Shown: positions 19,047 to 22,080 of the stretch, piece after piece
Layout of the letters: each line of letters starts with the position of its first letter
Position numbering within the stretch: the stretch's first letter is position 1
Assembly: GCA_963662545.2 (NCBI GenBank)
Contig: CAXXLL010000002.1
Location: 2,400,001 to 2,464,000, forward strand
DNA length: 64,000 nt
DNA from: Gammaproteobacteria bacterium
GTDB lineage: Bacteria > Pseudomonadota > Gammaproteobacteria > Ga0077536
Reading direction: 5' to 3'
Made by a program: the position numbers and the translations under genes
Notes under the pieces: generated by a model
Database searches by the model: none
Told to the model about the DNA's origin: nothing
The model's input: the letters and a program-made list of their open reading frames with translations, nothing else

Positions 19047-19781
19047 CTACTTCTGCACCGTTACCAGAGTCCCGACCTCCTGTCCAAGCGCGGCCGCAAC
19101 GAAGGTGCCCGGTTTTGTCATATTGACAACGCGCAAAGGCATTTTATTGTCGCGGCATAATACAATCGCGGTAGCATCCATGACATTGAGCTTTCGTTCA
19201 AGCACATCGTCGTAGTCGAGCGTTTTGTATTTTATCGCCTGCCGATCGATAGCCGGGTCCGCTGAGTAAACGCCATCGACCTTAGTCGCCTTGATCATAA
19301 GGTCTGCGTCGATCTCAATAGCCCGTAAACTCGCGGCGGAATCGGTCGTAAAGAATGGGTTGCCCGTACCCGCGGCGAGAATGACTACACGGCCCTTTTC
19401 AAGGTGCCGTAGCGCGCGCCGGCGAATGTAGTCTTCGCAAACTTCATTGATTTTGATCGCTGACATGACACGAGCGTATACGCCCTTACGCTCCAATGCG
19501 TCCTGAATGGCCAGCGCATTGATCACCGTCCCGAGCATCCCCATGTGATCGGCCGTTACCCGGTCCATCCCCGACGCAGCAAGTCCGGCTCCGCGGAATA
19601 TATTGCCGCCGCCGATGACGATAGCTACCTGTACGCCGGAATCTCGAAGATCCTGAATTTCGTTGCCGATCCTCTCGAGTACAGCGGGATCGATTCCATA
19701 ATCTTGCTCGCCCAATAAAGCTTCGCCGCTGAGTTTAATCAGTACGCGGCGATACCGGGCTTGCGGAGAATGACCCGTCAT
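19047..19781 (-). CDS. pyrH: UMP kinase
   Basis: [25 protein letters not shown]. Confidence 0.97.
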
Positions 19782-19957
19782 CGAAAATACTGTGACAAGT
19801 GTGCTGTCGTGTAATAAAGCTTCATAACTCGCTGATCCTCGTGCCGCGTCACGGTGTTGCGATTTTGGCCGTATTACCGATACGACGGCTCATCGCCCCG
19901 TACACCCCGAGCGTCCTGCGCGCTGTACTGAAGATTAATACGGGACTAAACCATTCT

Positions 19958-20020
19958 TCAGGATCGGCCGGCGCTTCGTGCCTGCGCCATGACTTCATCT
20001 GCGATATTCTCCTGCTGCTT
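19958..20020 (-). pseudogene. tsf: Detached C-terminal 20 codons of tsf (KQQENIADEVMAQARSAGRS*)
   Basis: Immediately beyond repeat A copy 2; resembles the EF-Ts tail that follows GEGI (EKxExxFAxEV). Confidence 0.8.
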
Positions 20021-20024
20021 TTAG

Positions 20025-20186
20025 GGAACCTCTGAATAAGTCAAGGTGCATGTGAATTGTTCATGCAGTGGAGGAGATCAAGGCACGAATCGCAGGCCAT
20101 AGCGGGCAATATTGGCAAGCTTCGTAACGCGGTGCTGCACGATTTCATGGGCAAGGCAGATGTGCCATGACTTATTCAGAGGTCCC
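20025..20186 (-). mobile_element. Repeat family A copy 2, between tsf and its detached tail
   Basis: 162 bp, both TIRs, TTAG direct repeats at 20021-20024 and 20187-20190. Confidence 0.9.
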
Positions 20187-21008
20187 TTAGATGCCTTCGC
20201 CGACTTCGTACCGGACGAAACGCCTGACCTTCGCGTCGCTTGCATCGAGCAGTTGCGCCACCGTCCGATCCGTGTCCTTAACGAACGCCTGGCCCAGCAG
20301 CGTAATTTCGTTTATGAATTTCTTCAGCCTGCCTTCGACCATTTTATCGACGATCTGCGGCGGCTTGCCGCTCTGCTCCGCTTGAGCAACCTGGATTTCG
20401 CGTTCTTTTGATAGTAGTTCTTCATTGACATCGTCTTCGCCGATACAAACCGGGCTACTGGCCGCCACCTGCATTGCGATGTCGCGCGCGAGATCGCGGG
20501 TCCCGCCTTCCATCGCGACCAAAACCCCAATTCGGTTGCTGTGAACATACGACTCGATGACGCCCTCCGCGAAATCCACATAATCGAAGCGGCGTACGGA
20601 AATGTTTTCCCCGATTTTAGTTATGAGGTTTGTACGCATTTCCTCGATAGATTCCCCGTTGTCAGTGACAGCGGCAGCCAGAGCCTCGAGATCCTGCGGA
20701 CGTTGCCGGAGAAGAACCGCCGCGACGCTCTGCGTAAACTGAGTAAAGTTGTCGTTTTTCGCGACGAAGTCGGTTTCGCTGTTAACCTCGACGAGAACCG
20801 AGCGACTGCCGTCGACGACGGCGATAACAGCGCCTTCAGCCGCGATTCTGCCCGCCCTTTTTGCCGCTTTCGCGGCACCGGACTTGCGCAGGTATTCCAG
20901 CGCGGTCTCTATATCTCCATCGGTTTCGACCAGTGCTTTTTTGCACTCCATCATGCCCGCGCCCGAGCGTTCACGTACTTCTTTCACCATGCTGGCGGAA
21001 ATCGCCAT
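20187..21008 (-). CDS. tsf: Elongation factor Ts, C-terminally truncated
   Basis: VKEVRERSGAGMMECKKAL, EVNSETDFVA; ends RYEVGEGI* at the repeat junction. Confidence 0.96.
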   Translation of the reverse strand: MAISASMVKEVRERSGAGMMECKKALVETDGDIETALEYLRKSGAAKAAKRAGRIAAEGAVIAVVDGSRSVLVEVNSETDFVAKNDNFTQFTQSVAAVLLRQRPQDLEALAAAVTDNGESIEEMRTNLITKIGENISVRRFDYVDFAEGVIESYVHSNRIGVLVAMEGGTRDLARDIAMQVAASSPVCIGEDDVNEELLSKEREIQVAQAEQSGKPPQIVDKMVEGRLKKFINEITLLGQAFVKDTDRTVAQLLDASDAKVRRFVRYEVGEGI

Positions 21009-21050: not shown

Positions 21051-21959
21051 TTATTCCTTTATCGACGCTTCCACGCCGCCTTCGACCTTGGCATCGGCGG
21101 TGTCATCCGTTGCGGCACTCGCAGGCGCCTCGCCATCTTCCACTGCCGTTTCGGGCTCTATCGATTCACCTTCTGATTGATCTGAAGCCTGGTCCGAAGC
21201 CGGCGGCGAAAGTGCTTGCGCTTCGGCTTCGTCGATCTCCACAAAATCGTCGGCCGCCCCTTCGGCTGCTTCGGATATGATTAAACGGCTGTCGAGAATC
21301 GCATCGCAAACGGCCTTGGTGTAAAGATTGATCGAACGTATCGCATCATCATTCCCCGGTATCACGTAATCGATTCCATCGGGTGAATGGTTCGTATCGA
21401 CGACCGCAACGATCGGGATCCCGAGCTTGATGGCTTCGGCGACCGCTATGCGTTCGTGCCCGACATCGACGATAAACAAGGCGTCGGGAAGGGTTTCCAT
21501 ATCCTTGATGCCGCCGAGCCCCGCATTCAGTTTTTCGAGTTCACGCCGGATCTGCAGCCCTTCCTTTTTCGACATGCGCTCGAGTCCACCTGATTCAATC
21601 AGCTCCTCGTGTTCGCGCAGCCGGTTTATGGATTGCTTGACCGTCTTGAAATTGGTCAACATGCCGCCGAGCCAGCGTCGGCTTACGTAAGGCATGGAAC
21701 AACGCTGCGCTTCTCGTGCAATCGCCTCCTGGGCGGCCCGCTTCGTTCCCACTAAGAGGATCTTTCCACGCTTCGCTGCGAGGCGACCGATGAAATTTAT
21801 CGCCTCCTCGAACAGGGGTAATGACCTCTCGAGGTTAATAATGTGGATCTTATTGCGTTCCCCGAAGATGTACGGGGCCATTTTTGGATGCCAGAATCGG
21901 GTCTGGTGGCCGAAATGCACACCAGCCTCCAACATCTGGCGCATGCTCACATCGCTCAT
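21051..21959 (-). CDS. rpsB: 30S ribosomal protein S2
   Basis: [33 protein letters not shown]; SD GGAG before the ATG at 21959. Confidence 0.97.
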
Positions 21960-21976
21960 CGCGTCTTCTCCTAATT

Positions 21977-22057
21977 GGGTTAGGCCTCCACGAATCCCAT
22001 GCGCCAATCCGCCGCTATCGCCGCAGACACCCGGACGCGTGTGTCGATTCGTGTGCG
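21977..22057 (-). ncRNA. t44 / S2 autoregulatory leader of rpsB
   Basis: Minus strand reads CACACGAATCGACAC...CCGGGTG...ATGGGATTCGTGGAGGCCTAACCC, the pattern of the gammaproteobacterial rpsB leader. Confidence 0.85.
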
Positions 22058-22080
22058 TAATTATTTCGAAGCGGGTTTAA

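Follow-up and report, generated by a model that had tools for sequence, protein, structure and literature searches.

The subject of this analysis is a tsf gene that ends at a mobile element in G000:C2:2400001-2464000, a 64,000-nt stretch (hereafter the window) of the genome of a sponge-associated gammaproteobacterium designated G000; all feature coordinates below are positions in this window. The gene encodes elongation factor Ts (EF-Ts), an essential translation factor, and its reading frame stops directly at a miniature inverted-repeat transposable element (MITE), on the far side of which the former C-terminal module of the protein can still be read. The genes on the minus strand are arranged in the order rpsB, tsf, pyrH, frr, and uppS on the basis of open reading frames (ORFs) and Pfam matches, which corresponds to the rpsB-tsf-pyrH-frr context typical of bacterial tsf (Ribosomal_S2 upstream and AA_kinase/pyrH downstream), with frr named by ORF inspection alone. 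The source stretch is present in runs from nine studies, several of which are labelled as sponge or marine metagenomes; of the sampled words, the RNA runs X18-X20 contain only 7-14%. The G000 assembly consists of three contigs (5.58 Mb, 58% G+C, 96.85% complete), and the closest genome compared, G002, belongs to the same genus, shares 95% amino acid identity with G000 in EF-Ts, and is referred to here as the sister.

A tsf gene without its C-terminal module

The tsf product of G000 ends with ...RYEVGEGI and is followed by a TAA stop at 20187-20189, which the MITE directly abuts. The protein was recognized by both PF00889 (EF_TS; 9.6e-76, 254.3 bits, cut-off 27) and TIGR00116 (2.6e-99, 332.1 bits, cut-off 104), and the latter match covers profile positions 2-276 of 293, leaving the C-terminal end of the profile unreached. 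The EF-Ts of the sister has 294 aa and continues for 21 residues beyond the G000 end, in agreement with an initial annotation of this DNA, which had described the factor as about 21 residues short. In all 39 matched relatives the open frame is no shorter than 292 aa, versus 274 for G000. A translated tail after GEGI, with its conserved aromatic residue in the motif N/D-F-A/V-x-E-V, is absent from the G000 protein. The initial annotation had also advised looking for a second tsf copy, and none could be found, as the EF_TS profile has a single match across the three contigs of the 96.85% complete genome.

Directly past the element, the minus-strand codons (from 20020 down to 19958) read KQQENIADEVMAQARSAGRS and then TGA. 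This stretch matches the tails of the sister (KKQENFADEVLVQARSAGRS, followed by a stop) and of another relative, G001, codon for codon and, as judged from this alignment, is the EF-Ts tail rather than a chance resemblance, because just 5 of 60 nt differ from the sister tail. The downstream peptide thus aligns with the EF-Ts tails of relatives, and its description as a still readable relic holds. The sister carries no element at the end of tsf, where the codons are GGC ATC GAA AAG and the protein reads GEGI-EKKQENFADEVLVQARSAGRS before its stop; G001 likewise has ATC GAA and a full tail. The comparison of 3' ends in related genomes, which had been proposed as a check, therefore yielded GAA empty alleles in both, and the TAA of G000 occupies the Glu (GAA) codon, as had been suggested. 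When the element and one CTAA were removed in silico, ATC TAA AAG was obtained, which is one G>T change away from the ATC GAA AAG of the sister; the same product had been predicted for precise excision, which would not restore the frame.

The tail is a widely conserved part of the protein. It was read as GEG(I)EKK..(N/D)F..EV, always with Phe, in 29 of 29 fetched relatives, and was also present in all 80 loci of a wider, mostly gammaproteobacterial set (79 with Phe and 1 with Tyr). Altogether, 109 of the 109 relatives read keep the tail, and the aromatic residue is Phe in 108 and Tyr in 1 where G000 has Ile, which agrees with the earlier statement that a conserved Phe had been replaced. In G000, the motif survives solely as an untranslated NIADEV past the MITE. 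Four non-synonymous changes and one synonymous change separate the relic from the sister tail, among which K>Q, F>I, and the synonymous change occurred on the G000 branch; they appear compatible with decay of the relic, but are far too few to test it. In an alignment with the 282-residue E. coli EF-Ts (1EFU chain B), the tail of the sister faces EKVETDFAAEVAAMSK and can be followed to residue 280; the missing piece is thus the E. coli-type C-terminal module, as initially annotated. The coordinates of the features are listed in Table 1.

Table 1. Features in and around tsf, in descending order of position.
Feature	Position	Strand	Basis or remark
t44 RNA, known rpsB leader	21979-22075	-	Rfam RF00127, 67.7 bits; ordinary; upstream of rpsB
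rpsB	21051..22007	-	Pfam Ribosomal_S2
tsf, 273-aa EF-Ts without C-terminal module	20187..21008	-	ORF; Pfam EF_TS; TIGR00116; sole EF_TS match in genome
Right copy of target duplication, TTAG on the plus strand = CTAA on the tsf strand, holds the premature stop	20187-20190	.	CGAA in the sister
Non-coding MITE, 162 bp, terminal inverted repeats of ~20 bp	20025-20186	.	One of ~129 full copies
Left copy of target duplication, 4 bp, TTAG on the plus strand = CTAA on the tsf strand	20021-20024	.	
Relic of the former EF-Ts tail, not translated: 20 codons (KQQENIADEVMAQARSAGRS) and original TGA stop	19958-20020	-	Alignment with G002 and G001 tails
Second, unrelated short repeat, ~159 bp	19787-19945	.	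Between relic and pyrH; absent from G002; alignment with G002/G001
pyrH (UMP kinase), intact	19047..19781	-	ORF; Pfam AA_kinase; alignment with G002

The MITE at the stop codon and its family

The statement that tsf ends in GEGI-TAA at the element, with the tail readable beyond it, was correct in every detail and can be refined in one respect: the duplicated target is 4 bp (CTAA), and the TAA stop therefore belongs to the duplication. By BLAST, the tsf copy could be located in 150 separate places of the G000 genome, comprising 129 full-length copies and additional fragments, and 107 of the 129 full copies are exactly 162 bp long. Identical 4-mers flank 68 of the 129 copies (TTAG in 27, CTAA in 20, TTAA in 12, and others in 9), and 59 of these 68 perfect pairs thus conform to YTAR. 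The element is small, non-coding, and multicopy, as are MITEs of the IS5 type. Its inverted repeats start with GGAA and contain GAATAAG, which we take to be IS5-like features. Pairing between the arms extends over ~20 bp at the tips and amounts to 72% when 60 nt are considered, and this arrangement is conserved across the 129 copies. As RNA, the tsf copy forms a long hairpin, starting directly downstream of the stop, with a folding energy of -59.7 kcal/mol (z = -4.59), and no Rfam match was found at the MITE. The hairpin could stabilize the 3' end of the tsf transcript or impede read-through.

Individual copies show 5 to 25 differences from the majority consensus, with a median of 13. Since no copy is fewer than 5 differences away from the consensus, the family appears to be old and possibly immobile by now. 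The closest relative of the tsf copy within the genome is 90% identical. At least 40 full-length matches to the MITE were found in the sister, and the family was not found in G001, G016, and G019. At one sister locus (L195, G002:C26) that lies opposite G000:C3:1167315, an extra TCC, the triplet with which the MITE ends, stands beside TTAG at the empty site and may be an excision footprint or a chance occurrence.

The genome of G000 also bears a very heavy load of insertion sequences (ISs), with 108 DDE_Tnp_1 matches that include families of ~54, 68, 15, and 13 copies; the assembly of the sister amounts to 3.0 Mb in 150 contigs, compared with 5.58 Mb in 3 contigs for G000. No autonomous partner that encodes its own transposase between ends like those of the MITE (17-mer, allowing up to 3 mismatches) could be found in G000, and none of the 14 DDE_Tnp_1 IS groups whose ends were compared is similar to the MITE at its ends. 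Several longer units bounded by MITE ends were considered as candidates and rejected: the 1595-bp units are two cases of a MITE copy interrupted by a 1425-bp IS4-family element, the 1309-bp unit is a MITE copy that holds an IS630-family element, and a 1086-bp unit encloses membrane-protein ORFs. These longer units are nested IS elements or stretches of host genes between separate MITE-type ends. The 1425-bp IS4-family element has ~11 copies in the genome and lies within MITEs at G000:C2:2471513-2473107 (L179) and G000:C3:2821421-2823015 (L181), at nearly equal central positions, and the IS630-family element (L180) lies at about the same point, so that the center of the MITE hairpin may be a hot spot for insertion. 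In the 1086-bp unit (G000:C2:2174215-2175300; L183 16216-17301), two MITE-type ends surround two small membrane-protein ORFs with a GGGCTSGHG motif, presumably typical of YeeE/YedE-like sulfur transport proteins, and it could consist of two separate ends or be a cargo-carrying unit.

The presence of the tsf insertion was verified with contigs from four runs (X1, X8, X12, and X15) of four studies, which were mapped on the locus. The junction between tsf and the MITE is bridged by contigs in all four runs and that between the relic and the MITE by contigs in X1 and X8. In these two runs, some contigs reach from pyrH across the relic and take in 80 nt of the element (19700-20104; at most 1 mismatch), and others include 33 nt of the element and continue into tsf (20154-20500; no mismatch); in X15, which represents a strain diverged by 2-3%, the bridge on the tsf side includes 44 nt of the element. 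With ~129 copies in the genome and no single contig in the four runs spanning the whole element, a MITE copy might have been wrongly placed in tsf through repeat collapse, yet both junctions are crossed in X1 and X8 at such low mismatch, X12 and X15 cross the tsf side, and the private internal substitutions of the tsf copy recur in those contigs. The four runs come from four independent studies, and no joint skipping the element was found among them. Thus, the probability of an assembly artefact is negligible, and the misassembly that the initial annotation had named as a possible objection is not the case. No joint skipping 20025-20186, which would represent an empty allele, was present in the contigs of the four runs, although contigs drop rare variants and a minority allele could be hidden; accordingly, the population heterogeneity for which a check had been advised was not seen at this level. 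The exact 28-nt stretch ending in the stop has no match in the metagenome contigs. These results show that the MITE-filled allele is fixed in the sampled populations.

The initial annotation had stated that EF-Ts is cut off from its C-terminal module by the MITE, and this wording can be retained in part. The tail does lie beyond the element, but the truncation is due to the stop codon itself, at which the MITE merely sits; the role of the MITE is to occupy the stop and to block simple reversion. If the TAA reverted, translation would read E-G-T-S-E and then meet a TAA inside the end of the element. Because a reverted codon would lead only five codons into the element, the loss of the tail should be effectively irreversible as long as the MITE is in place.

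Between the relic and pyrH, the second repeat has ~6 other copies in G000 at roughly 77% identity (BLAST against the genome) and has displaced the GGAG found ahead of pyrH in the sister. The ATG of pyrH lies 405 nt after the tsf stop in G000, compared with ~20 nt after the stop of the full-length tsf in the sister. A scan of the region from tsf to pyrH (19600-20400) revealed neither a sigma-70-like promoter nor an intrinsic terminator.

Origin of the stop codon and its occupation

Two alternatives had been offered for the coincidence of stop and element: either a GAA-to-TAA change first created the CTAA target, or the element imposed TAA on an imperfect target. As judged from the empty alleles of the relatives, the ancestral 4-mer is CGAA, which is not a YTAR target. 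Eighteen G000 copies could be placed in the compared DNA of the sister, of which 9 are shared and 9 are found only in G000 (1 unreadable); when the tsf site is added, 9 readable G000-only sites result, and at 5 of them neither flank matches the empty allele. Stop codons account for three of these sites, with TGA in the sister and TAA (plus the element) in G000. In the reverse direction, 36 copies of the sister were examined (one site counted twice), 11 of which are common to G000 and 10 of which have a readable empty site in G000, and at 5 of the 10 sister-only insertions the empty 4-mer differs from both flanks.

Such disagreements are what would be expected if the MITE had entered a full-length tsf whose CGAA was intact, with both flanks becoming CTAA afterwards and the element itself creating the stop. 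Here the ancestral target was certainly CGAA and yet both flanks are CTAA; moreover, YTAR-flanked copies face TCAG or CTGA as empty alleles at C2:344506, C3:935444, and C3:1154691, insertions of the sister face TCAA, TTTG, and CAAA at L076, L081, and L067, one sister site (L078) appears half-converted, with flanks TCAG/TTAG and the empty site TCAG, and in two G000 copies the two flanks are CGAA and CTAA. The change could have been brought about by carry-over of donor flanks, in the manner of piggyBac-type elements whose donor overhangs pair with the target, or by gene conversion from YTAR-flanked copies. We know of no such flank-imposing mechanism for IS5-type elements, although no literature search was made on this point.

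However, the same disagreement was found where no MITE is involved. In a null test based on 165,814 aligned bases of G000 and the sister (8.5% mismatch), 264 of 522 YTAR sites of G000 (51%) differ in the sister, and 289 of 547 YTAR sites of the sister (53%) differ in G000. The leading changes at these MITE-free sites are TTAG/TCAG and CTAA/CTGA, and the pair seen at tsf (CTAA/CGAA, or TTAG/TTCG) accounts for 7 of the 522. About half of the targets are lineage-specific because AT-rich 4-mers turn over fast in a genome with 58% G+C, which means that the target sites of YTAR-specific elements continually arise and disappear in this lineage. Freshly made YTAR sites are common, and the MITE sites are not unusual among them. 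The disagreement between flanks and empty alleles thus needs no special mechanism, because MITE-free YTAR sites show it at the same rate and with the same kinds of change. In addition, non-canonical targets have been copied without alteration into both flanks in at least 9 of the 68 perfect pairs of G000 (such as ATAA, TTCA, and CTTA) and in three copies of the sister (ATAA/ATAA, TTAT/TTAT, and TTTA/TTTA). At C2:345471, where the flanks are TTGA/CTGA and the empty site of the sister is CTGA, the TGA of the sister is kept in both flanks. The nearest relative of the tsf copy, at just 90% identity, gives no sign of recent conversion.

Donor-imposed flanks were therefore dropped as an explanation after the null test and the faithful copying of odd targets, and the second alternative of the initial annotation has found no support. 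It is improbable that the stop was formed after insertion into CGAA by any of these routes, and even less likely that the MITE can write its own YTAR flank onto near-cognate targets through carry-over and mismatch repair and in this way turned the GAA of tsf into TAA; if true, the latter would imply that the family can create stop codons in genes and not merely land there. The first alternative fits the data, with CGAA as the ancestral state and a null test that matches the MITE sites. Since odd targets are duplicated faithfully and MITE-free YTAR sites differ equally often, the most likely order would be a GAA>TAA change that made the CTAA target, followed by the insertion.

This order is set in a broader preference of the family for stop codons. 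Among the 129 MITE copies, 39 (30%) directly adjoin the stop of a frame that is open for at least 150 codons, approximately three times the rate among random YTAR sites (9.5% of 5,000 sampled from the 22,269 in the genome). Insertions at stops cost nothing because the YTAR duplication regenerates TAA or TAG on the side of the gene. Seven of the nine G000-only sites with a readable empty allele, tsf included, are insertions at stops; among the other six, the sister stops at the same codon in five and the sixth is ambiguous, which leaves tsf as the only case with a sense codon in the sister. The premature stop of tsf is treated by the MITE like any other stop. Stop codons may be viewed as safe harbors for YTAR-targeting elements, and a mobile element that settles there can then lock in a nonsense mutation.

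Probable function of the short EF-Ts and comparison with known systems

Over the 273 codons of tsf, 38 synonymous and 15 non-synonymous codon differences separate G000 from the sister, with 16% divergence at fourfold sites, and the neighboring pyrH gave similar numbers (40 synonymous and 12 non-synonymous). When the differing EF-Ts residues were polarized with 28 other relatives, 4 were derived on the G000 branch and 6 on that of the sister, and 5 were ambiguous. By these codon comparisons, the remaining part of tsf is shown to be under purifying selection. Because selection acts on the rest of a single-copy gene, the 273-aa EF-Ts most probably still works as an exchange factor.

The same data bear on the idea that tsf is a dying gene whose function has been lost or replaced in an eroding, host-restricted genome. 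A genome with 108 DDE_Tnp_1 matches and ~129 MITE copies is rich in mobile DNA, two insertions have entered the short interval that separates the truncated tsf from pyrH, and two substitutions at positions conserved elsewhere in EF-Ts (G158S and E222D) are derived in G000, each against 27 of 28 relatives. However, the 273-codon frame is intact, its ratio of synonymous to non-synonymous changes resembles that of pyrH, derived residues are not in excess in G000, no other EF_TS match exists in the nearly complete genome that could replace the gene, and the same allele is carried by all four populations examined, including the diverged strain. A decaying tsf is thus highly unlikely. Compensatory changes in EF-Tu were also considered: the two tuf copies of G000 have 18 residues unlike those of G001, G006, and G019, but only fragments of tuf are available for the sister, so that none of the 18 changes could be placed after the split.

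Taken together, these observations may be arranged in a stepwise history. After the split from the lineage of the sister, a G>T change would have turned tsf codon 274 from GAA (Glu) into TAA, at once removing the 21-residue C-terminal module and creating the 4-mer CTAA. Into this target the 162-bp, YTAR-targeting MITE of the IS5 type would then have been inserted, with duplication of the target, leaving the stop abutting the element and the old tail untranslated beyond it, where decay might have begun with Phe>Ile. A second small repeat would later have landed between the relic and pyrH. The tail would add a contact to EF-Tu domain I that is not needed for nucleotide exchange, as suggested by naturally tail-less EF-Ts proteins. 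The scenario as a whole, comprising the nonsense change, the MITE insertion on CTAA, the second repeat, and a working 273-aa EF-Ts, is considered quite likely.

Several points weigh against this history. A TAA allele without the MITE was not found, and the order is thus inferred rather than observed. Given a new stop, the chance of its occupation is only ~2% (39 of roughly 2,100 stop-type YTAR sites; a derived figure). At 18 positions the tsf copy departs from the consensus, which would be a high number for a young insertion if the source copy had not itself diverged beforehand; dating of the insertion from this divergence was dropped because the source copies had already diverged. The relic has three changes assignable to the G000 lineage, too few for dating. 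The DNA of the sister in the null test came from around MITEs and from a few syntenic blocks, a non-random sample in which coding and non-coding positions are mixed. Moreover, the retention of the tail in all 109 relatives read argues that its loss carries some cost.

The case of tsf is one of gene erosion amid a heavy load of repeats, as would be anticipated for a host-associated genome with so many insertion sequences, and does not represent a novel type of system. It amounts to an experiment of nature in which an essential translation factor has lost a module: one lineage is tail-less within a clade where all examined relatives keep the tail. The presence of the tail-less allele in all four populations examined, together with selection on the rest of the gene, suggests that the C-terminal module may tune the EF-Tu/EF-Ts cycle without being required for it, and that the tail would be dispensable. 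The proteins of G000 (273 aa) and the sister (294 aa), at 95% identity, provide a matched natural pair for biochemistry. Removal of the C-terminal module from the E. coli protein, in work by Zhang, Sun and Spremulli in J Biol Chem in 1997, is said to have weakened EF-Tu binding and function without abolishing them. No open paper testing deletion of the EF-Ts tail was found in a literature search.

Among known mobile elements, the MITE is closest to IS5 (IS5 family, IS5 group) and the MITEs derived from it, with which it shares a 4-bp YTAR duplication, small size, the lack of an ORF, and a high copy number. YTAR is described as the IS5 target motif, duplicated as 4 bp, in PMC5009759. Unlike the case of IS5 elements, no autonomous element with these MITE ends was found in G000.

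With regard to EF-Ts, E. coli (1EFU chain B, 282 aa) has the same family and domain order up to GEGI, the protein of the sister aligns with its residues 3-280 (E = 6e-78), and the relic of G000 corresponds to its C-terminal stretch EKVETDFAAEVAAMSK; in contrast, the G000 protein stops right after GEGI, and the Phe of the tail is Ile in the relic. In E. coli, the C-terminal module contacts EF-Tu domain I, according to PMC3747624 and PMC11085428, and the latter review describes the part reaching this domain as absent in M. tuberculosis EF-Ts. The matches to M. tuberculosis EF-Ts (7VMX, chain A as 7vmx_A; 271 aa) and Thermus thermophilus EF-Ts (1AIP, 1aip_C) end at query positions 271 and 270, respectively, which is where the G000 protein ends and which agrees with the initial remark that some EF-Ts proteins, such as that of Thermus, naturally lack the tail. 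The review presents these tail-less EF-Ts proteins as working exchange factors without the C-terminal module (PMC11085428). The short form is normal in those organisms, whereas in G000 it represents a recent secondary loss, with the relic of the tail still visible beyond the element.

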